DNA from: Escherichia coli
GTDB lineage: Bacteria; Pseudomonadota; Gammaproteobacteria; Enterobacterales; Enterobacteriaceae
Assembly (NCBI RefSeq): GCF_041886205.1
Contig: NZ_CP169029.1
DNA length: 64,000 bases
Reading direction: 5' to 3' (one strand)
In this document: positions 8,932 to 25,346 of the stretch, piece after piece
How positions within the stretch are numbered: position 1 is the first letter of the stretch
Layout of the letters: each line of letters opens with the position of its first letter
Made by a program: the position numbers and the translations under genes
Notes under the pieces: model-generated
Told to the model about the DNA's origin: nothing
What the model saw: only the letters and a program-made list of their open reading frames with translations
Database searches by the model: none

Positions 8932-9166
8932 AGATATAAAACCCTTATATATTAATACGATTGTGCTTATGTTGTTTATGTCATGTGCTTTTGCAGTTTT
9001 CGACTATACCATCAAGAATGTGACGGTAAGCAAGAAAAAAATGACCCAGGAAAGCAAATTAATAACGAGAGTAATCTCATAACCAAATGCGATAACTCAG
9101 ACGCTAAAGTTTTGCCACCCGGCTACCGTTATCAGTAGCAGAGACAATAACGTTAAGGAGTTCCCT

Positions 9167-9439
9167 GTGAGTCGAGCATTGTTCGCCGTAGTATTAGCAT
9201 TTCCATTAATTGCACTGGCTAACCCGCATTATCGTCCGGACGTGGAGGTAAACGTACCGCCAGAAGTGTTCAGTTCAGGCGGGCAGTCAGCGCAGCCCTG
9301 TACTCAGTGCTGCGTTTATCAGGATAAAAATTATTCTGAAGGGGCGGTAATTAAAGCCGAAGGAATACTGCTGCAATGCCTGCGGGATGACAAAACCCTT
9401 AGCACTAATCCGCTGGTCTGGCGGCGCGTAAAGCCATAA
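9167..9439 (+). CDS. ynjH: Small secreted protein YnjH (DUF1496), 90 aa
   Basis: ORF track 9167..9439; GTG start with aaggag Shine-Dalgarno at 9154-9159; signal-peptide-like N-terminus. Confidence 0.75.
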   Translation: MSRALFAVVLAFPLIALANPHYRPDVEVNVPPEVFSSGGQSAQPCTQCCVYQDKNYSEGAVIKAEGILLQCLRDDKTLSTNPLVWRRVKP

Positions 9440-9812
9440 ACGCCTCTAATAGTGGAATGTCAGCAGGGGCCAGCGGATATTGCAGCGCCTCTTCAGGTGA
9501 GCACCAGACCAGCGCCTGATGTTCATGTGCCTGTAACGTCCCGTGGAAGTCGGGTACGTGCCAGGCATGAAGATGGATAATCCGGCCCGAAACTTCTCGC
9601 TGATGGCTGGCAACATACTCACCCACAGTTGCTTCGATGCCCAGTTCTTCGTTTAACTCACGCACCAGCGCCTGCTGCTGGCTTTCATCCAGCTCGACTT
9701 TACCACCGGCAAACTCCCATAATCCCGCCTGATCGCTTTGGGCGGGGCGTTGCGCGAGTAAAATTTTGCCATCACGTTCAATGATGGCGGCAACAACTTC
9801 AATCATTTTCAT
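9405..9812 (-). CDS. nudG: CTP/dCTP pyrophosphohydrolase (Nudix), 135 aa
   Basis: ORF track 9405..9812; Nudix box GGKVELDESQQQALVRELNEELGI. Confidence 0.9.
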   Translation of the reverse strand: MKMIEVVAAIIERDGKILLAQRPAQSDQAGLWEFAGGKVELDESQQQALVRELNEELGIEATVGEYVASHQREVSGRIIHLHAWHVPDFHGTLQAHEHQALVWCSPEEALQYPLAPADIPLLEAFMALRAARPAD

Positions 9813-9898
9813 AAATTACACACGGGCAGATAAGCGAAAAATGCCATAATATCCGCACTGTTGCTCAATCAGAAAGGCTTTATATTTAAGGAGTGCCT

Positions 9899-10519
9899 GT
9901 GCTAGACCGCCATCTTCATCCCCGGATTAAACCGTTGTTGCATCAGTGCGTGCGGGTTCTTGATAAACCGGGCATTACGCCAGATGGTTTAACATTAGTG
10001 GGATTTGCCATCGGCGTGCTGGCTCTGCCGTTTCTGGCTCTGGGCTGGTATCTGGCGGCGCTAGTCGTCATTTTGTTGAACAGGCTGCTTGATGGTCTGG
10101 ACGGTGCGCTGGCGCGGCGCAGAGGGCTTACCGACGCGGGCGGCTTTCTCGATATTTCTCTCGATTTTCTCTTTTACGCGCTGGTGCCGTTTGGTTTTAT
10201 TCTTGCTGCACCGGAGCAAAATGCCCTGGCAGGCGGCTGGCTGCTGTTTGCGTTTATCGGTACGGGCAGCAGTTTTCTCGCCTTTGCTGCACTGGCAGCG
10301 AAACATCAGATTGATAACCCCGGTTATGCACATAAGTCGTTTTACTATCTGGGGGGATTAACCGAAGGCACAGAAACGATCTTACTGTTTGTGCTGGGAT
10401 GTTTATTCCCTGCATGGTTTGCGTGGTTTGCGTGGATCTTCGGTGCGTTGTGCTGGATGACAACCTTTACGCGGGTGTGGAGTGGGTATCTGACGCTGAA
10501 GTCGCTCCAGCGTCAGTAA
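9899..10519 (+). CDS. ynjF: CDP-alcohol phosphatidyltransferase family inner-membrane protein, 206 aa
   Basis: ORF track 9893..10519; GTG 9899 preferred (aaggag 5 nt upstream); multi-pass membrane protein. Confidence 0.8.
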   Translation: MLDRHLHPRIKPLLHQCVRVLDKPGITPDGLTLVGFAIGVLALPFLALGWYLAALVVILLNRLLDGLDGALARRRGLTDAGGFLDISLDFLFYALVPFGFILAAPEQNALAGGWLLFAFIGTGSSFLAFAALAAKHQIDNPGYAHKSFYYLGGLTEGTETILLFVLGCLFPAWFAWFAWIFGALCWMTTFTRVWSGYLTLKSLQRQ

Positions 10520-10527
10520 TTGCAATG

Positions 10528-11835
10528 TTATTTGCTGCTGTCCGGGCCGCGTTCACCGGTTGCTACCGGATTTTTTGGATCGCTGCTCCATTCGTACCAG
10601 CCGCCGTCGTAAACGGAGACGTTATTCCAGCCCATTGCTCGTGCGTACATAAAGGTTTCGGACGCGCGCCAGCCGGTGCCGCAGTAGAATGAAACTTGCT
10701 GATCTGGTTTGATATTCCATGCTTTCCACATAGCGGTAATATCATCGGCGCTACGCATGGTGCCATCCGGGTTATGGAAATCTTCCATATGCGTCGAGTC
10801 GCTACCAGCGTGTCCCCAACGTGCTCCGGCTATTTCACCTTTTGGTTTAATATAGCTGTAACCGCTGGTCGTACCGATAAATTCTGGCCACGAACGAATG
10901 CTCACCAGCGATGCATCCTGGCGATGCAGCAGTCCACGCGCCTGTTCCATATCAAGCATCAGTTGCGGTTGTGCCGGGATCTTCACGCCGAAATCCGGTT
11001 CCGCTTTCACTTTCGGTGGCGTTCCGCGCTCAACGGGCAGTCCCGCGTCGGACCAGGTTTGCCAGCCGCCGTCCAGCAGGCGGACATCTTTCACGCCAGC
11101 GTAGAGCATAATTTGTGCCACACGCGCTGCAGCGTATACGTCACGCCCGTACAGAATGACCGTGGTGTCATGGCGAATGCCGTGTTTTGCCAGCATCGCT
11201 TTTAGTTGTTCATCAGAAACTTTGTTCCACAGCGGTTCGCTTTCCACTTCGTTGGTATCGATGTAGTCAGCACCGGGAATATGGCTGATAAGGTAAAGCT
11301 TCGGAGCGCCCCAGGCCGCTTCAATGACTTTCCAGTCACCGGCAGGTTTCGCCGTAACCTCTTTACCTTGTTGCAGGTCATGCAGCCATTGCGGATAAAC
11401 CAGCTGCTCAAAGTGCGGCAGTTTTTGCAGACGGGAAGGTTCGCTTAGCGCGTCACTCAGGATGGAGATACGCGTAAAACCTGCTTTTTGCAGACGCGTT
11501 TTGACGGCATCGACATCTTTGTCATTACCGTACAGCGCCACCGGAGCATCGGTTTTCAGGTTATGTTGCTTGATCCACGCGTTGAGCTGTTCGGTGCTCA
11601 TTTTGTCGAGCCAGCTGGCAGAGAGGTTTAAGGCGGCAGGTTCATGACCAGAAGGGCCATTTAAGGTTTGTGGCCAGCCGTTATAAAACGCGCTGGGGCG
11701 AGTATCTATCGCTTTGCCATTTTGTTTCTGAAGCTGGTCAAGTGTAAGAGGCTTCGCCAGTTCAGCGGCCCACGAAGAAGCGCAAGCCAGCCCTAAAGCC
11801 ATTGCCAGCGCGGTCATTTGAGAAACACGTTTCAT
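10528..11835 (-). CDS. ynjE: Periplasmic triple-rhodanese-domain sulfurtransferase, 435 aa
   Basis: ORF track 10528..11850; internal start MKRVSQMTALAMALGLACASSWA (signal peptide); rhodanese active-site Cys context (YCGTGWRA). Confidence 0.88.
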   Translation of the reverse strand: MKRVSQMTALAMALGLACASSWAAELAKPLTLDQLQKQNGKAIDTRPSAFYNGWPQTLNGPSGHEPAALNLSASWLDKMSTEQLNAWIKQHNLKTDAPVALYGNDKDVDAVKTRLQKAGFTRISILSDALSEPSRLQKLPHFEQLVYPQWLHDLQQGKEVTAKPAGDWKVIEAAWGAPKLYLISHIPGADYIDTNEVESEPLWNKVSDEQLKAMLAKHGIRHDTTVILYGRDVYAAARVAQIMLYAGVKDVRLLDGGWQTWSDAGLPVERGTPPKVKAEPDFGVKIPAQPQLMLDMEQARGLLHRQDASLVSIRSWPEFIGTTSGYSYIKPKGEIAGARWGHAGSDSTHMEDFHNPDGTMRSADDITAMWKAWNIKPDQQVSFYCGTGWRASETFMYARAMGWNNVSVYDGGWYEWSSDPKNPVATGERGPDSSK

Positions 11836-11901
11836 CGAAAATCCCGACATTGTAGTTTTGAGTGCGCCATTCTGAAGTGACGCATTGGGAAAAACTTTGC
11901 G

Positions 11902-12555
11902 TTATCGCAGTTTGTTGTAATTTTCTGACCACTGAGCCATATCCAGAACAGAACTATCAGCAGGAACATCCTGGAGATCGTGCGTTACCTGAACGACGGG
12001 GATCGCCAGTTCGCGAACTTCGCTGAACACCCACTGGCGAAAATTATCGCGCAGAGCCACATCAAGACGGCTGAATGGCTCATCCAGTAGCAACGCTTTT
12101 GGCTGAGCGAGAAGGGCGCGAAGCAGAGCAACGCGCGCTCGCTGACCGCCAGACAAAGTGGCAGGATCCTGATGGAAAGCTCCGTCAAGGCCTGAACGCT
12201 CAAGTGCATCATTCACAGCATTACATCGGGCATTCCCCTTAAGTGTCGCCGGTAGCGCCAGCAGTAAATTTTGCCCGACGCTGAACTGGTCAAATAACAG
12301 TGCATCCTGAAAAAGAATGCCAATCTGACGCTGTGCGGTGGGTAGCATGTCAATCCGTTGCTCATTGAGCCATAGCTCACCTGTACAAGAAAACTGTTCG
12401 GCCAGTGCACCAATCATCCATGAAAACAGAGTGGATTTTCCACAGCCAGACGGCCCCATTAACGTGACAATGTCACCTTTATCCACCGTAAAGTTAACGT
12501 TTGTCAGCAAGCGGCTTTCTGGTAAACGTAGCGAAACATTTTTCACGCAGAGCAT
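11902..12555 (-). CDS. ynjD: ABC transporter ATP-binding protein, 217 aa
   Basis: ORF track 11902..12642; start at Met30 (ATG 12553-12555) overlapping the ynjC stop; Walker A GPSGCGKST and LSGGQ signature. Confidence 0.88.
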   Translation of the reverse strand: MLCVKNVSLRLPESRLLTNVNFTVDKGDIVTLMGPSGCGKSTLFSWMIGALAEQFSCTGELWLNEQRIDMLPTAQRQIGILFQDALLFDQFSVGQNLLLALPATLKGNARCNAVNDALERSGLDGAFHQDPATLSGGQRARVALLRALLAQPKALLLDEPFSRLDVALRDNFRQWVFSEVRELAIPVVQVTHDLQDVPADSSVLDMAQWSENYNKLR

Positions 12556-14090
12556 TAGCGGAGTCCTTGTCTGACATAACCTACCCATTTTGCGACTAAC
12601 GCGGTCAGGGCAAAAATAATAAGCGGTAATAGCAGTTGCCATAAAGCCTGGGCGGCGAGAATACCATTGCTGCCGCCGCTGCTTAATGCCACCGCCTCAG
12701 TGGTGAGCGTCGGAAAACGCCCCGCGCCCAGCCACAGCGTCGGCATATACTGCGCAATACTGACTGAAAATCCCACCGCGAAGGCAATCAGCGTAGGGCG
12801 TAGCATAAGCGGACATTTCACGTAAAAGAAGATTTTGGCCCGCGACCAGCCCAGTGTTTGCGCAATCAAAATTAACCGTGAATCAATGCGCTGCCAGGCG
12901 GGTTGCAGGATAAACAGCATCCACGGCATTACCCACAGCAGATGCCCCCAGACCACCGCCGTCCAGCTTCCATCCAGGTTCAGCCATAGCGCCAGCGTGT
13001 ACTGGCCCGCCACCAGTGGCAGGGCGGGTAATAAAATGGGCAACCAGAGCCACAACTGGCGACGCTGTGGCCCCCATTCCAGCCACAGCAGTAACAGGAG
13101 CAAAGCGATGAATGTCGCTACCAGCCCCATTGTCAGGCTGTTGATGAGCGCTTCACTATTGATCGTCGACTGATCCGCGAGGATCGCCAGCAGAACCACA
13201 CACAGCACACCGGTCAAGGGTAAAAAACTCGCCAGCGTAATGCCTGGCAATAAAGGCGTGGCAGGCTTACGAACGCCATCTACGCGGGGAATAGTACGCC
13301 GCCAGCTACGCCATAGCAGATAGCCCAGCAAAACGTAGGCGGCGAGTAACAGCATCAGCAGCAGGCTGGCGAGTGCGCCTTTCGTTTGTTGATCGGCGTC
13401 GCCCTGAGTTAACCACTGCCAGCTAATTACTGCCAGCGTCGGTGGATTACCTGGCCCAAGAATAATCGCCACATCCACGACCGACAGCGACCAGGCCACA
13501 ATCGCCAGCATCGCCATTGCCAGCGCAGGCGCGACGGAGGGCAACAGCAGCCAGTTCAGGCATTGCCAGCGGCTGTAGCCCAGCGAATCCAGCACGATGA
13601 CTTGCTGTACCAGGCGTTTTTCACTCAATACCGCTGCTAAGATCCACAGCAGAAATGCGCTTTCTTTCACTGCAAGGGTGAGGCCCAGACCGATGCCAAA
13701 TCGGTCCATTGGCGGAGTGAAATACGGGAAATAGTCATAAAGCAGCCCTCCGTCAGCAAAGAGCAGCAGGGCGCTGGTGGCAAAAGCCACATGGGGAATG
13801 GCGAGCAGCCACGGCAGACGGGCGCACATACGCTGCCATTTCGGCCCAGGCCACAGCGCCACAATCACCAGCAGGGCAATCAACAACGCCCCGACCGCCG
13901 CGATGGTTGTCGACACCAGCGTTGCCAGTAATGCCTGCGGTAACTGTGGATCGGCAAATAACGCCTGCCAGTGTGTCAACGACAAAGCAGGCGATATCAG
14001 CGTGAGAGCTGCCGGGATCAGCGGTGCATAAATCACCGCCACCATCGCCCACAGCAAAAAGATTAATGCGTACCGTAACGGTGTAGCCAT
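12555..14090 (-). CDS. ynjC: ABC transporter permease (two fused permease domains), 511 aa
   Basis: ORF track 12555..14114; start at Met9 (MATPLRYALIF...); highly hydrophobic. Confidence 0.85.
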   Translation of the reverse strand: MATPLRYALIFLLWAMVAVIYAPLIPAALTLISPALSLTHWQALFADPQLPQALLATLVSTTIAAVGALLIALLVIVALWPGPKWQRMCARLPWLLAIPHVAFATSALLLFADGGLLYDYFPYFTPPMDRFGIGLGLTLAVKESAFLLWILAAVLSEKRLVQQVIVLDSLGYSRWQCLNWLLLPSVAPALAMAMLAIVAWSLSVVDVAIILGPGNPPTLAVISWQWLTQGDADQQTKGALASLLLMLLLAAYVLLGYLLWRSWRRTIPRVDGVRKPATPLLPGITLASFLPLTGVLCVVLLAILADQSTINSEALINSLTMGLVATFIALLLLLLWLEWGPQRRQLWLWLPILLPALPLVAGQYTLALWLNLDGSWTAVVWGHLLWVMPWMLFILQPAWQRIDSRLILIAQTLGWSRAKIFFYVKCPLMLRPTLIAFAVGFSVSIAQYMPTLWLGAGRFPTLTTEAVALSSGGSNGILAAQALWQLLLPLIIFALTALVAKWVGYVRQGLR

Positions 14091-15229
14091 TCTTGTTCCA
14101 GCGCATTTACCCAACCTGCGTGCGGTTCAGCCAGTACCGGCGGCAGATCTTGCGGCATTCTTGATTGCAATGTTTCGCGCTGCCCATCAGGCAGTTTTTG
14201 CGGATCGAGAACAGAAGGATCGCCCCAGACAGCAGGGTCTGCTTTACGCAGTTGTGCATCGGGTGAGAGCAGGAAATTGGCGACAACCTTCGCCGCAGCA
14301 CTGGCATTCGCGTTAGCAGGAATGGTGACAAAATGCACGTTGCCAATCATTCCCTCGCTAAAGCCAAAGCTGTAACTGCTGGCGGGTAAATCGCCGCTGG
14401 CTATTTTTTGCTGCGCATGAGCAGGATTAAAGGTCAGCGACAGGCGCAATGTGCCGGCTTTCAGCAGGGCATCCATCCGCGCGGGCGAAGGCGGAAAATC
14501 CTTTCCTTCGCGCCATAAATACGGATGCAGCGCATCAAGAAATTGCCACAAGGGCGCAGTGACACGGGCGAAAGTCGCATCGTCCGGCGCTTCTTTTAAT
14601 GCGGCGGGATCGGGCGTCAGCATAATCAGCAACTGTTCAAGAAACGCCGTGCCGGTAAAGTCCGGTGGGCGCGGATAGGTAACCGTACCGGGATTGGCTT
14701 TAGCAAACTCCAGTAAGGCTTGCGGCGTTTGTGGTGGCTGTGGCGTAACATCGCGGCGGGCGATAAACGTCAGTTGTGCGCCGCCCCAGGGCGATTCAGC
14801 CCCTTCTGTAGGCACTGAAAAATCTTCCCGCACCGGCAGCTGTGTGTCGACATAGCGCCAGTTGGGCAGAGTCTCCGCCCAGCCTGTTTGTAATAAATTG
14901 GCCTCTTTTAAGGTGCGGAAGTTTTCGCCGTTCACCCAGAGCAGATCCACCGAGCCGCCCGTTTTACGTCCGGCAGCAGCTTCGGTCTGAATGCGCTTCA
15001 CCGCGTCTGCGGCATCCGCCAGACGAACAATCTTCAGGTTTATAGCGTAATGGGTTTTCATCTCGCCGCTAACCCAGTCGAGATAGCGGTTAATTGCGGT
15101 ATCGCCGCCCCAGGCGTTAAACCAGACGGTTTGCCCTTTGGCCTCATTTTTAATTTCCTGCCAGTCACTGGCATGTGTTGCCAAAGAAAACAGCGATAAC
15201 AATCCCAGCAACCACCCACAATGGCGCAT
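14063..15229 (-). CDS. ynjB: ABC transporter periplasmic substrate-binding protein, 388 aa
   Basis: ORF track 14063..15229; signal peptide MRHCGWLLGLLSLFSLATHA. Confidence 0.88.
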   Translation of the reverse strand: MRHCGWLLGLLSLFSLATHASDWQEIKNEAKGQTVWFNAWGGDTAINRYLDWVSGEMKTHYAINLKIVRLADAADAVKRIQTEAAAGRKTGGSVDLLWVNGENFRTLKEANLLQTGWAETLPNWRYVDTQLPVREDFSVPTEGAESPWGGAQLTFIARRDVTPQPPQTPQALLEFAKANPGTVTYPRPPDFTGTAFLEQLLIMLTPDPAALKEAPDDATFARVTAPLWQFLDALHPYLWREGKDFPPSPARMDALLKAGTLRLSLTFNPAHAQQKIASGDLPASSYSFGFSEGMIGNVHFVTIPANANASAAAKVVANFLLSPDAQLRKADPAVWGDPSVLDPQKLPDGQRETLQSRMPQDLPPVLAEPHAGWVNALEQEWLHRYGTH

Positions 15230-15238
15230 CTTCTCTCC

Positions 15239-15787
15239 TTAAAAACGTTTTTCAGGAATACGGCACAGCCCCTGAGCGGGAATGTCCATGGCAGAATTAA
15301 AACGAGCCGACAGATTTTGCAGGCCGATCAATGCCGTCAGTTCGGTGAGCGCCTGAGCGTCAAAATGCGCAGCCAGTCGGGTACGCAGGGCATCATCGAC
15401 CGTTGGCGGTGTGACGCTTGCGGCTTCGGCGTACTCCAGCGCCAGCCGTTCTTCATCGCTGAAGAGCGGGCTTTGCCGCCAGTCAGCCACTGCCAGCAGT
15501 TTATCGCTGCTGCCGGTACGCTCGGCGACTTTCATACTGGTGATATCCACACAAAACTCACACAGGCACATTTGCGCAATGCGCGCGCTGACAAGCGATC
15601 GTACTACCGGATCGAGCGGTGAGCGTTTGCGCTCCAGCCAGCCGACAAACATCGACACCAGATAAAAGATAAACGGGATCCGCCCCCACCAGCGAATGGG
15701 GCTTAGCACCTCGCCGTAATGGCGACGATGCAGCCACGCCTGCGGACGTAAAATGAAAGGAATTTTGTTCAGCGGCGGTAAACCCAT
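15239..15787 (-). CDS. ynjA: Carboxymuconolactone-decarboxylase (AhpD-like) family protein, 182 aa
   Basis: ORF track 15239..15787; start overlaps the ydjZ stop by 1 nt. Confidence 0.85.
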   Translation of the reverse strand: MGLPPLNKIPFILRPQAWLHRRHYGEVLSPIRWWGRIPFIFYLVSMFVGWLERKRSPLDPVVRSLVSARIAQMCLCEFCVDITSMKVAERTGSSDKLLAVADWRQSPLFSDEERLALEYAEAASVTPPTVDDALRTRLAAHFDAQALTELTALIGLQNLSARFNSAMDIPAQGLCRIPEKRF

Positions 15788-16494
15788 CAGGCATTCCTCT
15801 TCTGGCGCTCAAGCCATATTTTCTTCGCCATAAAAATCACCACGCTCAGGGCAAACAGAATAAACAGCCCGGTGACAAACCAGAAAGTGCCGCCCGTTAA
15901 CATGCTACCCGCCCAGGAGTAGACGATGGTCGCGGGTAACTGACCAAGCCCGGTGGCGATAAAAAACGAGCGAAAACGTATTGAAGTCAGACCGGCAGCA
16001 TAGCTGATTGGATCGAAAGGGACAAAAGGCAACAACCGACAGACCAGGATGGTGTGTTTGCCGTAGCGAGTGAAAAAGCCGTCCATACTGTCAAGCACGG
16101 TTTTGCCGGTTAATTTTTCCACCACTTCGCGGCCCATCACTCTGGCGATAAAAAAGCACAGCGCCGCGCCGGCCATCGAACTGGTCCACGACAGCAAGCC
16201 GCCCCAGAACGCGCCAAACAGCGACGCATTGGCAAAGGTGATCAAAAACGCAGGTAGCGGTGCAGCAATGGCCTGTAAAATCATCAACAAGAACGAGACA
16301 ACTGCCGCCAGTGCGCCGTAAGACTGAATAAAGCGTTCTATACCCTGTTGGTCCACGGCGGCAAACGCCGCAACGCTGCGATTGATAAACTCATGGACGC
16401 CGGGAAGCAGCGCCCATGCCAGCAGCACAGCGAACAACAGGATGATGAGGGTTATACGGTAGTACCAGATTTTACGCGATTGCATCTTCATCAT
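15787..16494 (-). CDS. ydjZ: TVP38/TMEM64 (DedA-like) inner-membrane protein, 235 aa
   Basis: ORF track 15787..16494; multi-pass membrane protein. Confidence 0.85.
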   Translation of the reverse strand: MMKMQSRKIWYYRITLIILLFAVLLAWALLPGVHEFINRSVAAFAAVDQQGIERFIQSYGALAAVVSFLLMILQAIAAPLPAFLITFANASLFGAFWGGLLSWTSSMAGAALCFFIARVMGREVVEKLTGKTVLDSMDGFFTRYGKHTILVCRLLPFVPFDPISYAAGLTSIRFRSFFIATGLGQLPATIVYSWAGSMLTGGTFWFVTGLFILFALSVVIFMAKKIWLERQKRNA

Positions 16495-16507
16495 CCTTTA
16501 TCCTGCT

Positions 16508-17185
16508 TTATTCGGTGATTTTAAAGGTAACCGTTGCCAGCGTGTTATCCGCCGGGAGAACTGAGGCATTGCCTTTGAATTTCACTTCGCCGCGTTTTTC
16601 CACCGCACCATAAGTGTATGTTGCATTGCTGACGATGCCGACCGGGCAGCTATCCAGACACACCAGGCAGCCCGTTTTCTTCTCTTCTGCTGCCGTTAAA
16701 TTACCGCCAAAGCGCATGTCCAGTTTCTTGCCATTACTGTCAACAATCACTTCATCGAAGGAATACGCTTTTGCCGCCCCTTGCCAGTTGACCGAAATAT
16801 CCAGTTTGCTGCCTGTGACATGAGTCGTTTCTTTATTATCCATCGTCATGTTTTCGCCCGGCGTACCACCTGCCTCTTTCAGGGCTTCATAAAATGCTTT
16901 CGGGGTCGCATAACCCATAAACAGCGATTTATGTCCGTTGGAGCCATCTTTAAACACAATACCGTGACGAGTGTCGTCGGTGAGGAAACGACCATTAATT
17001 TGCACCAGCATGGTTACCGTATGGTTATTGGCATCGACGCGCAGCGGTTGGCTGTTCGAAAGTCCGTCGTATTCCACTTTTGCCGCCGCATTCTCTTGTT
17101 GATCGCAGCCGCTAAGCCCAGCAACAGCCAGTAAGCAGAGTGCAGCCAGTCCTTTTTTCCATGACACTGAATAATGTTGCAACAT
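16508..17185 (-). CDS. ydjY: Putative lipoprotein YdjY, 225 aa
   Basis: ORF track 16508..17347; start at internal Met (MLQHYSVSWKKGLAALCLLAVAGLSGC, lipobox LSGC). Confidence 0.8.
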   Translation of the reverse strand: MLQHYSVSWKKGLAALCLLAVAGLSGCDQQENAAAKVEYDGLSNSQPLRVDANNHTVTMLVQINGRFLTDDTRHGIVFKDGSNGHKSLFMGYATPKAFYEALKEAGGTPGENMTMDNKETTHVTGSKLDISVNWQGAAKAYSFDEVIVDSNGKKLDMRFGGNLTAAEEKKTGCLVCLDSCPVGIVSNATYTYGAVEKRGEVKFKGNASVLPADNTLATVTFKITE

Positions 17186-17189
17186 CGTT

Positions 17190-17900
17190 CTATCCTTCAT
17201 TTTTTGGGTGAGTAAGTGGGCTGCGGCGCGAAGCAGACAGATCCACATGTTTGTGTCGGGCGTAGAGTTTTGCGAGCTGGACGAGAATAAACAGCGCCAG
17301 GCCCGCCAGACAGAGTTGTAAAATAAAGCGCAGCGTAATGCCTTCATTGGCGAGATCGCTTGCCATCACGGTATAAATAACAATACCGGGCAGGGTCGTG
17401 AGTGCCGAAATAAGGGTATAAGGCCAGAAGGCGATGGTGGTTAATCCGTAAGCGTAATTTTGAATATTGTAAGGAAACAACGGGATTAAGCGGGTCAGAA
17501 TAAGAAAATCAATACCGTTACGCGCAATGCCTTTTTCAATGGCCTGGAAGGTATGGCTATGGCCCACGTATTTCAGCAGTAAATCACGTCCCAGCCAGCG
17601 CGCCAGCAGGAATGAGCACGAGGAGGCCAGCGTTGCGGCAATTAATGAGAGTAGTGTCCCTAAGAGCGGGCCAAAAACTATTCCTCCAGCGATCACCAGT
17701 ATGCTTCCTGGTAACAGAAAGAGGGTGGCAATGATGAATAACAGAATATAGAGGCTATAACCGAACAATCCGCTCTGGCGAATGAGTGTCTGTAAGTGGG
17801 GTAAATCGGTGAGCAGATCGAATAAACCGAAAGCGTGGATAGCGTAAATGACCAGCGCAAAAATAAGACAGGCAAACAGAAAGTTACGCTCAGCGTTCAT
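17190..17900 (-). CDS. ydjX: TVP38/TMEM64 (DedA-like) inner-membrane protein, 236 aa
   Basis: ORF track 17190..17948; start at internal Met (MNAERNFLFACLIF...). Confidence 0.82.
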   Translation of the reverse strand: MNAERNFLFACLIFALVIYAIHAFGLFDLLTDLPHLQTLIRQSGLFGYSLYILLFIIATLFLLPGSILVIAGGIVFGPLLGTLLSLIAATLASSCSFLLARWLGRDLLLKYVGHSHTFQAIEKGIARNGIDFLILTRLIPLFPYNIQNYAYGLTTIAFWPYTLISALTTLPGIVIYTVMASDLANEGITLRFILQLCLAGLALFILVQLAKLYARHKHVDLSASRRSPLTHPKNEG

Positions 17901-18066
17901 CGTGGAGTTTCCTATATCAAACTTGATAATAGAGAAGTGGTCAGACAACTAAAAACGCAGTGACGGTATAACAAAGGACGGCAGGCAACAAATCATTACT
18001 GACAGTTTGTTGATTTTTCTCAAGGTTAATTCTCCTGACCCAGTTTGAGCCAGGAGAGCTGCTAAA

Positions 18067-18873
18067 TTAGCGGCGGAAGGTCGCCCAGACGGGGGCGTGA
18101 TCGGACGGTTTTTCCATGCTGCGAATTTCATAGTCGATGCCGGTTTCTACGCAACATTCTGCCAGCGGTTGGCTGGCGAGCAGCAGGTCGATGCGCAGAC
18201 CACGGTTATCGTCAAAACCTTTTGAGCGGTAATCAAACCATGAGAAACGATCTGCTGTTTGCGGATTAGCATGGCGGAAGGTATCGACCAACCCCCAGCT
18301 CATCAGCCTGTCCATCCATTCGCGCTCTTCCGGCAGGAAAGAGCATTTACCGGTACGCAGCCAGCGCTTACGGTTTTCTTCGCCAATGCCGATATCCAGA
18401 TCTGTAGGGCTGATATTCATATCGCCCATAATCAGTACCGGATTATCACGTTTGAGTTCGGTTTCCAGGTAGTTTTGCAGATTCTGATAAAACTGCGCTT
18501 TTGCCGGGAATTTTATCGGATGGTCGCGGCTTTCACCCTGCGGGAAGTAACCGTTGATCACGGTGACATTACCCAGCAGTGAGGGGATTTCCGCCATAAT
18601 AATCCGCCGCTGCGCCTCTTCGTCGTCACCGGGAAAGCCGCGACGCACGGCAATCGGCGTCTCTTTGGTCAGCAGCGCCACGCCATAATGGCCTTTCTGC
18701 CCGTGATAAAACACGTTGTAGCCGAGCTTCGCCACCTCTTCGAGCGGAAACATATCGTCATGAACTTTTGTCTCCTGCAGGCCAATCACATCCGGTTGGT
18801 GCTTTTCGACGATGGCTTCAAGCTGGTGAGGTCTGGCGCGCAGGCCGTTGATATTAAAAGAGACAAATTTCAT
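18067..18873 (-). CDS. xthA: Exodeoxyribonuclease III, 268 aa
   Basis: ORF track 18067..18885; start [14 protein letters not shown]...; EEP nuclease fold. Confidence 0.93.
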
Positions 18874-19230
18874 AGTCGCTGCCATTTATTCAGATAAAGA
18901 GTGCGTGGATGGTAGCAGAATTTCGCGTTGCTTACTGCCTGTTGTTAAGTGATTTGATCGATGGTTGTTAATGATGTCAACGATGGCGCAAAAAATGCCC
19001 GCTTTTGGTGCGCGCTGCGTCAGAATGGCGCAGTAATTTCCAGTAAATTTCGTCAATGATCACAATTCCAGAATTATATTTTACTTCTGCATAACATTGC
19101 GTTTTTTATTCTTTTTATTCACCCACATCGCAAACGTATTCACTTTATATGCACTTTAAATGCATATGGTTTGGTTATAACTCCTTGATTTCCAGTTAGC
19201 CTCCGCCGTTTATGCACTTTTATCACTGGC

Positions 19231-19246
19231 TGGCACGAACCCTGCA
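19231..19246 (+). promoter_or_regulatory. Sigma54 (-24/-12) promoter of the ast operon
   Basis: TGGCAC-N5-CTGCA at 19231-19246, about 75 bp upstream of astC; the ast operon is known to be NtrC/sigma54 and sigmaS controlled. Confidence 0.6.
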
Positions 19247-19282
19247 ATCTACATTTACAGCGCAAACATTACTTATTATTAA

Positions 19283-25346
<6,064 letters not shown>

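Follow-up and report, generated by a model that had tools for sequence, protein, structure and literature searches.

What does the run of tightly packed genes ydjX-ydjY-ydjZ-ynjA-ynjB-ynjC-ynjD do for Escherichia coli, and where does the system of which it is a part begin and end? The run lies at positions 11902-17900 of the window analysed here (the whole stretch of 64,000 nucleotides, nt) and is followed by ynjE. A sequence-only reading had taken these genes for a system of uptake and processing of a sulfur-containing or redox-active substrate and had held the substrate not to be established, on which point we agree. Here we argue that the unit consists of nine genes, ydjX-ynjD together with ynjE and the oppositely oriented ynjF. 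We also put forward, as a tentative reading held with more doubt than confidence, that these genes form an FNR-induced anaerobic envelope system, which would handle selenium or a related chalcogen or metalloid by thiol chemistry across the inner membrane and would include a step with an organic or lipid-linked carrier.

Gene coordinates were taken from the RefSeq annotation of a 100%-identical record and from the list of open reading frames (ORFs). The minus strand carries ydjX (17190-17900, 236 amino acids, aa), ydjY (16508-17185), ydjZ (15787-16494, 235 aa), ynjA (15239-15787), ynjB (14063-15229), ynjC (12555-14090, 511 aa) and ynjD (11902-12555, 217 aa) and, beyond a gap of 66 nt, ynjE (10528-11835); ynjF (9899-10519), which encodes a membrane protein of the CDP-alcohol phosphatidyltransferase family, has a GTG start and lies on the plus strand. 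The junctions measure +4 nt (ydjX/ydjY), +13 (ydjY/ydjZ), -1 (ydjZ/ynjA), +9 (ynjA/ynjB), -28 (ynjB/ynjC) and -1 (ynjC/ynjD), which confirms the earlier description of seven genes separated by overlaps of 1 to 28 base pairs or by gaps of under 15. All seven are collinear, as had been claimed; the strand itself, minus, had been left out. A Shine-Dalgarno-like purine run precedes most of the internal genes of ydjX-ynjD and is weakest at ynjC. The 6-kilobase (kb) block 11902-17900 was matched in 5424 of 5426 complete E. coli genomes, which indicates that the cluster is real and no chance arrangement; 5312 of the 5424 hold at least 80% of it. Mechanically called ORFs start upstream of the annotated starts of ynjD (246 instead of 217 aa, 11902-12642), ydjY (279 instead of 225 aa, 16508-17347) and ynjE (440 instead of 435 aa, 10528-11850); for ydjY, homologue alignments and the lipobox favour the annotated start.

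The borders of the unit were drawn by comparison within the enterobacteria. In Kluyvera and in a contig labelled Salmonella, the interval between xthA and nudG holds genes in the order VTT-VTT-YnjB-YnjC-YnjD-YnjE; beyond these, the opposite strand carries YnjF and an overlapping CMD-family gene, and ydjY is absent from both loci. This CMD gene overlaps the start of ynjF (L090:12750-13935; L091:12717-13908) and is translationally coupled to it, whereas E. coli has at the equivalent position an 86-nt gap between nudG and ynjF (window positions 9812-9899) and carries its CMD gene as ynjA inside the operon. The difference is a relocation of the CMD gene within one syntenic block. We extended the comparison with a metagenome scan anchored on YnjF, whose best 80 matches were all from Enterobacteriaceae and which bears on enterobacterial architecture, not on distant associations. 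Among 40 enterobacterial contigs of at least 9 kb, 16 had the CMD gene upstream of ynjF and an operon without it, eight were of the E. coli type with ydjY and the CMD gene inside the operon, seven had the CMD gene inside the operon and no ydjY, and nine were too truncated for classing. Synteny of ynjE and ynjF with the operon held throughout the enterobacterial architectures seen. Because eight genes (ydjX, ydjZ, ynjA, ynjB, ynjC, ynjD, ynjE and ynjF) are kept together while the CMD gene switches between two transcription units, we place ynjE and ynjF in the same functional unit as the operon, and the extent proposed from the sequence alone, which stopped short of ynjF, was too small. Its description of the locus as conserved core genome holds within E. 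coli but not among the Enterobacteriaceae, in which ydjY is an accessory component; base composition (GC 0.48-0.57) gave no sign of a recent transfer of ydjY.

Published expression data support co-regulation of most of this unit. A published list has ydjXYZ-ynjABCD as one operon under direct activation by FNR, which acts from a site at -60.5, and gives ynjE a separate FNR-activated promoter, with the site at -41.5 (PMC3688515). In the xthA-ydjX intergenic region we found an FNR-like box, TTGATTTTTCTCAA (18010-18023), with one mismatch to TTGAT-N4-ATCAA; its centre lies ~60 nt upstream of the start inferred from a TATACC -10 element (17970-17965), in agreement with the reported -60.5 site (PMC3688515). 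The box and the published operon bear out the earlier expectation of one co-regulated unit. In front of ynjE, a promoter scan of 9800-18400 detected its single promoter-like site, a sigma-70-like TTCAGA-16-TACAAT (11849-11876, minus strand), and the motif scan found no FNR box with two or fewer mismatches there. A near-perfect palindrome, TTGCGTTATCGCAG, spans the ynjD stop codon at 11897-11910, with AGTTTTT next on the coding strand, and might act there, ahead of the ynjE promoter, as a weak terminator or as a site bound by a protein. ynjA and ynjB have been reported as mildly induced by BaeR over-production. An E. coli iModulon consists of the ydjX-ynjD operon, ynjE, yedEF and yjiLM; its activity rises when oxygen is absent and is reduced by mutation of fnr or arcA, its yedEF genes encode a putative selenium transporter and a sulfurtransferase-like protein of selenium metabolism, and its authors proposed a link with molybdenum and selenium usage (PMC7888660). 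An Rfam scan of positions 9000-19500 (E <= 0.1) gave neither a riboswitch nor another RNA element from which a ligand could be named. We take yjiLM to be 2-hydroxyacyl-CoA-dehydratase/activator-like genes.

The family assignments of the sequence-only reading (a DedA/VTT pair, a lipoprotein, a CMD protein, an ABC importer and a triple rhodanese) were upheld by profile matches. YdjX and YdjZ, 26% identical to each other, match the VTT domain PF09335 at 93.1 and 87.1 bits, respectively (cut-off 33.9), and YdjX is a COG0398-type VTT/DedA inner-membrane protein. YdjZ orthologues, at 200-280 bits, adjoin ydjY in most lineages, and 49 residues of YdjZ, C113 among them, are invariant across 25 lineages. 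Neither protein scores as a UptA-type undecaprenyl-phosphate flippase (NF052604, 27.5 bits for YdjX and 36.5 for YdjZ; cut-off 250). In published surveys, COG0398 DedA proteins are described as lacking the acidic and basic residues found at the re-entrant helix tips of undecaprenyl-phosphate flippases and as resembling eukaryotic scramblases, and their commonest fusion partners are disulfide-reductase (MerA-like) domains. The lipoprotein YdjY matches the NF040466 YdjY domain and has a lipobox, LSG/C, with Asp at +2. Since Asp at this position is the E. coli signal for inner-membrane retention of lipoproteins, YdjY is predicted to be retained in the inner membrane. Its invariant motif is Cys173-x2-Cys176-x-D-S-Cys180-P, and selenocysteine replaces a cysteine in none of 79 motif instances (80 loci). 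Some sources label YdjY a 4Fe-4S ferredoxin, which we reject: there are only three cysteines (C-x2-C-x3-C-P), the lipoprotein signal is of the Sec type without a twin arginine, there is no Fer4 match in Pfam, and PDB E-values are ~0.3. The search of solved structures returned no sequence relatives of YdjY.

YnjA is a soluble CMD/AhpD-like protein (PF02627, 36.5 bits; cut-off 23) with zero hydrophobic segments and the motif C-L-C-E-F-C. It is 53% identical to the Kluyvera CMD protein encoded upstream of ynjF, in which the motif reads C-D-C-A-F-C, and its best NCBIfam match is 'YciW-related (seleno)protein', an equivalog missed at 101 bits against a cut-off of 310. For YnjE, a signal peptide and three stretches matching PF00581 (117.7 bits) confirmed the predicted periplasmic protein with three rhodanese domains, the C-terminal loop of which reads C-G-T-G-W-R. 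Published assays describe YnjE as periplasmic, without apparent thiosulfate:glutathione activity and poor with 3-mercaptopyruvate, the enzyme that converts thiosulfate to sulfane sulfur being PspE (PMC10215317); the RefSeq product name of YnjE is nominal because no thiosulfate:glutathione activity was reported. YnjE-like rhodaneses adjoin YdjY in Catonella, Campylobacter and one metagenome-assembled genome (MAG) of the Peptostreptococcaceae. YnjF is a multi-pass membrane protein (PF01066, 43.4 bits; cut-off 22) with the conserved motif D65-x2-DG-x2-AR-x7-G81-x3-D85-x3-D89, in which D65, D68, G69, A72, R73, G81, D85 and D89 are invariant in the alignment. Its best NCBIfam matches, archaetidylinositol-phosphate and phosphatidylinositol-phosphate (PIP) synthases, stay below cut-off, and no synthase equivalog is reached. 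The YnjF-type subfamily (~200 residues, with an extra KSFYY..GL.E.TE motif) numbered 390 clusters at E <= 1e-30 in a representative-library search, and no paper on ynjF function was found in the literature searched.

By their sequences, YnjB, YnjC and YnjD have what is expected of a type I (binding-protein-dependent) ATP-binding cassette (ABC) importer, namely an exported binding protein, two permease domains and an ATPase, which confirms the earlier claim of a complete importer with a fused double permease. YnjB matches SBP_bac_8 (52.5 bits; cut-off 27) and NF008633 (561 bits; cut-off 203), and its N-terminal signal peptide ends THA/SDW; its Firmicutes homologues, 30-35% identical and with many invariant motifs in common, have lipoboxes. 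The C-terminal half of YnjC matches BPD_transp_1 (30.1 bits; cut-off 26.4), and two separate Firmicutes permeases align to its residues 35-235 and 356-501, with 12 hydrophobic segments in all; YnjC is a true fusion of two permeases. In YnjD (PF00005, 103 bits), the Walker A motif GPSGCGKST, the signature LSGGQ and the Walker B motif LLLDEP are readable. The importer does not score as a thiamine, 2-aminoethylphosphonate, sulfate or molybdate transporter, all values being below the equivalog cut-offs: the nearest equivalogs of YnjD (PhnT2, sulfate and ThiQ ATPases) all fall short, with ThiQ at 132 bits against 245 and PhnT2 at 147 against 458, and so do PhnU2 (34.5 against 593), CysT (24 against 246) and ModB (23 against 183). 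The family alignment of YnjB holds no conserved cysteine; a search for YnjB homologues gave a list saturated by Enterobacteriaceae. A search for PDB sequence relatives gave none, and the profile search led only to distant PotD-type proteins. A structural look at YnjB, which the sequence-only reading had suggested as a check, did not point to a ligand: a Foldseek search with a model returned generic cluster-D binding proteins (PhnS-like 4r6y, PotD, ThiB and FutA1; TM-scores 0.55-0.62), from which no ligand can be inferred. The systems ThiBPQ, PhnSTUV, FbpABC and PotABCD resemble YnjBCD in having a cluster-D binding protein and a single ATPase, and the fused double permease is common to YnjC, ThiP and FbpB. 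Although these systems are the best fold and profile neighbours, all scores are far below their equivalog cut-offs, and YnjBCD differ from them in family-specific motifs of their own, conserved from E. coli to Firmicutes. At the level of profiles, then, each component falls within its family and none reaches a functional equivalog, be it for transporters, UptA, phosphatidylcholine synthase (Pcs), PIP synthase or YciW-type proteins.

We examined the neighbourhoods of YdjY in other phyla with a one-genome-per-species scan, which gave 80 YdjY loci in 44 genus-level lineages, neighbours being counted within 10 kb by representative queries. A VTT protein, usually a directly adjacent YdjZ orthologue (200-280 bits), was present in 37 of the 44 lineages, and YdjX-like second VTT copies were present in 21. 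Outside the enterobacteria, YdjY and a YdjZ-type VTT protein form a near-obligate pair. A small membrane protein with four transmembrane segments (4-TM), free or fused to the VTT N-terminus, accompanied the pair in at least 22 lineages and was absent from the Escherichia loci. Other neighbours were a Fer4/CCG (HdrD/GlpC-like) protein (16/44; fused to the VTT protein in Desulfobacterota), a rhodanese (14/44), a YnjB-type binding protein with permeases (9/44), the TIGR04282 and TIGR04283 transferases (9/44), an ArsS-type radical S-adenosylmethionine (SAM) enzyme (8/44), YedF (8/44), a YnjF-type transferase (6/44), SelD (5/44), LPG_synthase_TM (5/44) and a nucleoside hydrolase (3/44). A YnjA-type CMD protein occurred in Escherichia and Citrobacter only (2/44), and every variant has its redox slot filled, by a CMD protein, a Fer4/CCG protein, a C-GCAxxG-C-C protein or a PrdB-like protein with UxxC.

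Several of these neighbourhoods contain genes of selenium metabolism. The run in Facklamia begins with a TIGR04282/kinase gene, TIGR04283, a PrdB-like gene, (ArsS), a DsbD-type membrane protein and a ResA-like thioredoxin, continues with YdjZ, YdjX, nucleoside hydrolase, 4-TM, YdjY and rhodanese, and ends with tRNA-Sec, one 169-aa ORF, SelD, YedF, SelB and SelA. In Facklamia languida, the tRNA-Sec (66 bits, L079:11714-11806) lies between the rhodanese gene 3' of ydjY and selD, so that the full selenocysteine machinery (selC, selD, yedF, selB and selA) is contiguous with the module. The YdjY/VTT clusters of Facklamia and Bacillus benzoevorans also contain a PrdB/GrdB-like ORF with a TGA after ~155 codons (L079:4879-5598, L080:3693-4412 and L071:13115-13876); read-through yields 239-253 aa with a conserved SPG-U-YIC-HQ motif, and the ORF probably encodes a selenoprotein within the cluster. 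Contiguous examples from Desulfobacterota are SelD-YedF-x-YdjY (L085) and Fer4CCG/VTT-YdjY-SelD (L028), and at a third locus YedF, an SclA-like desulfurase and SelD are close to YdjY-TM4 (L089). For adjacency to selenium genes in at least nine of the 44 lineages, a rough binomial with a background of 3% gives P ~5e-6, although the lineages are not fully independent. In E. coli itself the operon does not adjoin selD, yedF or selenocysteine genes, the link there being the co-expression with yedEF only (PMC7888660).

Other neighbourhoods tie the module to the enzymes of a different cluster. In Campylobacter concisus, a co-directional series comprises YdjY, 4-TM, a TIGR04282/APH-kinase fusion, VTT, VTT, TIGR04283, DUF6037, Fer4/CCG and ArsS, with scores of 448 bits for ArsS (cut-off 300), 155 for TIGR04282 (134) and 193 for TIGR04283 (182). 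A Syntrophorhabdaceae MAG (L023:4260-7800) has CysH, CysD and a CysN-like GTPase, which scored as SelB-like and is CysN by inference, directly upstream of Fer4CCG/VTT-YdjY-ArsS-TIGR04282-TIGR04283; these three upstream genes belong to the activation and reduction of sulfate or selenate. The transferase YnjF also recurs: a YnjF-type gene lies inside the module in four Firmicutes lineages, in three of them directly before the YnjB-type gene and in Formimonas between the 4-TM gene and a VTT gene. One of five YnjF-anchored contexts consists of YdjZ-like, YdjX-like and C-GCAxxG-C-C genes, a read-through YnjF~YnjB ORF and a permease, and two more have YnjD-type ATPase genes directly upstream, one also with permeases. 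The read-through ORF (P0269, L175:4891-6666, 591 aa) combines a YnjF-like part with a YnjB-like part that is 39% identical to E. coli YnjB; it keeps a signal-peptide-like junction, and instead of a true fusion it may represent two coupled genes.

The observations above concern which genes are present, how they are spaced, their families, their control by FNR, their co-expression with yedEF and their synteny across phyla; from these we infer the element handled, its direction of movement and every chemical step of the following scheme. On the periplasmic side, YnjE with its three rhodanese domains and YdjY, anchored in the inner membrane and with three cysteines, would bind or activate the element as a cysteine-bound adduct. 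Passage of the element through the membrane, as such or linked to a lipid, would be the task of YdjX and YdjZ, and in the cytoplasm the CxxC protein YnjA would release or reduce it; in strict anaerobes, the slot of YnjA would be taken by a Fer4/CCG, C-GCAxxG-C-C or selenocysteine-containing PrdB-like protein. YnjBCD would import a polar organic partner molecule that needs no thiol ligands, and YnjF would join this molecule to a CDP-activated lipid or alcohol to give the species flipped by the VTT proteins. Selenium is suggested by the co-expression with yedEF, the adjacency of SelD, YedF and selenocysteine genes in two distant groups and a thiol-rich chemistry other than that of thiosulfate. 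The recurring linkage of YnjF, YnjBCD and VTT genes, together with the precedent of PetA (PMC10193950), indicates by analogy that a lipid-linked or CDP-activated organic intermediate may be part of the mechanism. According to reviews up to 2026, prokaryotes have no known uptake system that is specific for selenium and of high affinity. A stronger version of the proposal, which we regard as unlikely, is that the YdjY/YdjZ-type VTT module is the missing dedicated route of selenium acquisition or trafficking towards selenoproteins in E. coli and numerous anaerobes, with YdjX, YnjE, YnjA, YnjBCD and YnjF as its partners in E. coli and with a lipid-linked or organic carrier that YnjF makes from what YnjBCD import.

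A number of observations weigh against the selenium proposal. Many YdjY lineages, Gemella, Finegoldia and Peptostreptococcus among them, have the YdjY-VTT pair alone, with no selenium gene nearby, and the selenocysteine machinery of Facklamia and B. benzoevorans may be there solely for the cluster's own selenoprotein. ArsS (eight lineages) and TIGR04282/TIGR04283 (nine) are named by NCBI for 'arsenosugar biosynthesis', and arsenic fits the three cysteines of YdjY equally well. YnjB has no conserved cysteine, and its ligand cannot be inferred; the role given to YnjF in the proposed route is by analogy, and two of the five YnjF-anchored contexts show no association. The either/or patterns considered were not significant and were set aside as evidence (ArsS versus importer, P(no overlap) ~0.13; YnjF versus TIGR04282/3, ~0.23; hand calculation). 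YnjE is reported to assist molybdopterin synthesis, according to the passages that cite this work in PMC3688515 and PMC7888660. The suggested selenium role of these genes draws on context and co-expression, and we hold it as a possibility that may well prove wrong. To our knowledge, the classical hunts for E. coli sel and fdh mutants did not yield these genes.

The same neighbourhoods may instead reflect a salvage variant of an arsenosugar-type pathway, in which a lipid-linked head group, organo-arsenic or of another 5-deoxy-pentose type, is built and exported, an explanation that we consider rather doubtful. In anaerobes, ArsS, the nucleoside hydrolase, an APH-type kinase and the TIGR04282/TIGR04283 transferases would make the sugar; in E. 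coli, YnjBCD would import it, YnjF would lipidate it, YdjX and YdjZ would flip it outward, and YdjY and YnjE would act outside, the purpose being detoxification or membrane remodelling. It accounts for the C. concisus run, in which ArsS and both transferases stand with YdjY, TM4 and two VTT genes, for the recurrence of ArsS (8/44), both transferases (9/44) and nucleoside hydrolase (3/44) and for the lipid enzymes (LPG_synthase_TM in five lineages, YnjF-like enzymes in six); three invariant cysteines suit the coordination of As(III), and in one Finegoldia locus ars genes lie ~8 kb upstream. The PetA precedent, which ties DedA flippases to lipid synthases (PMC10193950), is shared with the selenium proposal. 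However, ArsS and TIGR04282/3 are absent from the Escherichia, Citrobacter, Kluyvera-type and enterobacterial metagenome loci, the locus of E. coli and related species also lacks the kinase, the surroundings of the clusters showed no ArsM-like methyltransferase, and the ArsS-versus-importer pattern lacks significance. The E. coli operon is co-regulated with yedEF and anaerobiosis, not with ars genes (PMC7888660), and the 'arsenosugar' names themselves go back to a cyanobacterial ArsS and genome context only. If neither chalcogen nor metalloid were involved, the genes could form a lipid head-group pathway in which YnjBCD would import a polyol, an amine or a phosphonate-type alcohol, YnjF would make a minor phospholipid from it and YdjX and YdjZ would distribute the product between leaflets in anaerobiosis, with the rhodanese and CMD proteins unrelated or regulatory. 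The adjacency of YnjF, YnjBCD and VTT genes across phyla (Firmicutes, metagenomic contigs), the closeness of YnjF to inositol-phosphate-type synthases and of YnjB, without a conserved cysteine, to the PhnS/PotD/ThiB group, and the scramblase-like character of COG0398 proteins with the PetA precedent (PMC10193950) would all fit. Yet no variant of the module is without a cysteine or selenocysteine redox protein, often joined by a rhodanese and YdjY, Kluyvera-type loci have the CMD gene in translational coupling with ynjF, and the operon is co-expressed with yedEF (PMC7888660); we hold such a pathway to be improbable.

The idea from which this work started, uptake and processing of a sulfur compound (thiosulfate, polysulfide or S(0), or an organosulfur nutrient) with YnjBCD as importer and YnjE and YnjA as processing enzymes, stands as far as an ABC importer accompanied by thiol and redox proteins is concerned. 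Its emphasis on sulfur and thiosulfate does not: the iModulon with yedEF and the synteny with SelD, YedF, tRNA-Sec and ArsS point to selenium or a metalloid with a lipid step, and the absence of thiosulfate activity in YnjE (PMC10215317) weakens the thiosulfate idea, as does its poor or absent activity with 3-mercaptopyruvate. In its favour are the rhodanese and CxxC proteins of the unit, weak matches of YnjC and YnjD to the sulfate/thiosulfate proteins CysT and CysA, the Syntrophorhabdaceae locus with its CysH, CysD and CysN-like genes, the many YdjY host lineages that reduce sulfur or polysulfide, and a genetic-interaction clustering of ynjABCDEFI with sufCDS and ydhD (PMC3930520). We rejected the last as firm evidence, as it could be an artefact due to linkage (all of these genes lie within ~100 kb, b1654-b1762). 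The matches to Cys transporters are far below cut-off (24 bits against 246-415), the reported control is by FNR, with no report of CysB-type or sulfur-starvation regulation, and YnjF, the VTT pair and YdjY would be left unexplained; we see little likelihood in a sulfur nutrient. Least probable, in our estimate very unlikely, is a system for molybdenum or tungsten or for molybdoenzyme maturation, which would import or thiolate these metals or supply molybdopterin sulfur for anaerobic respiratory enzymes. YnjE has been described as a molybdopterin-synthase sulfurtransferase (in the citing passages of PMC3688515 and PMC7888660), the iModulon authors proposed a role in molybdenum as well as selenium usage (PMC7888660), FNR control is shared with molybdoenzymes (PMC3688515), and YnjC and YnjD have weak matches to ModB, ModC and WtpC. 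Against this, YnjE is periplasmic (PMC10215317) and molybdenum cofactor synthesis cytoplasmic, the Mod and Wtp matches are far below cut-off, YnjB was not ModA- or TupA-like in the fold search, and no molybdenum cofactor genes were seen beside the module in the 80 loci.

The unit was compared with several known systems. YedE/YedF (a proposed selenium transporter and its partner) and TsuA/TsuB (YeeE/YeeD, thiosulfate uptake) likewise pair a membrane transporter with a sulfurtransferase-like partner, and YedE/YedF is co-regulated with the operon in E. coli, with YedF beside YdjY-VTT in eight lineages. The YeeE/YedE family is unrelated to VTT/DedA, however, and the present unit differs in having an ABC importer, a CDP-alcohol phosphatidyltransferase, a periplasmic triple rhodanese and a three-cysteine lipoprotein. 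In the ArsS/TIGR04282/TIGR04283 cluster (formerly rSAM/selenodomain-associated), the same YdjY, TM4, VTT pair, Fer4/CCG and rhodanese neighbours are found in Campylobacter, Facklamia, Thermincola, Syntrophus and others, whereas E. coli is without ArsS, both transferases and the kinase and has the importer and YnjF instead. The bacterial phosphatidylcholine synthase route begins with import of choline by an ABC transporter, followed by a CDP-diacylglycerol-dependent CDP-alcohol phosphatidyltransferase. The proposed YnjBCD-YnjF route would follow the same logic, an imported head-group alcohol being placed on CDP-diacylglycerol with no kinase or cytidylyltransferase, but the Pcs model gives YnjF no more than 18.8 bits, inositol-phosphate synthases being closer to it, and YnjB is not of the ChoX type. 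The Mer system (MerP/MerT/MerA) offers a functional analogy only, in which cysteines capture a thiophilic element outside, a small membrane protein lets it through and an enzyme of the disulfide-reductase type receives it inside; it has no sequence relationship to the unit, and no mercury genes are nearby. In Bacillus, the DedA flippase PetA is encoded beside PssA/Psd, which produce its lipid substrate, and this synteny was used to predict the substrate (PMC10193950); PetA belongs to a UptA-like clade, whereas YdjX and YdjZ are two COG0398 paralogues for which a flippase role is proposed here by analogy.

The genes themselves, their FNR control and the suggestion of molybdenum or selenium usage are already published. 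What appears to be new in the literature searched is the nine-gene unit with its mobile CMD gene, the YdjY/VTT/4-TM module and its distribution, the embedding of this module in ArsS-type and SelD/YedF neighbourhoods and the link between YnjF and the importer; the searches found no paper connecting YdjY or VTT proteins with ArsS or selenium. All nine genes belong to the still uncharacterized part of the best-studied bacterium's genome, and they are turned on in the gut, where oxygen is lacking. Our analysis ties the E. coli operon to SelD, YedF, selenocysteine and ArsS-type clusters of distant anaerobes, of which many live as commensals in the human mouth or gut or on the skin, and redraws the unit to include a phospholipid-type transferase. 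It bears on two questions, that of specific selenium trafficking and that of the function of COG0398 DedA proteins, the closest to human TMEM41B/VMP1; if a dedicated selenium route were true, it would provide the first physiological substrate for the bacterial COG0398 (TMEM41B/VMP1-like) DedA proteins.

Two minor features of the foreign loci deserve mention. An Rfam scan of seven of them detected only tRNA-Sec, one tRNA and one Clostridiales-1 RNA motif (49.5 bits; gathering score 48), the last at L037:10571-10678 in the gap between ydjY and 4TM-VTT of Catonella morbi. In Sulfurospirillum arcachonense, an isochorismatase-family gene lies two genes after ydjY (L002:10605-11165), and a review lists isochorismatase-like proteins among the genes tied to an unexplained SelD-based selenium trait.

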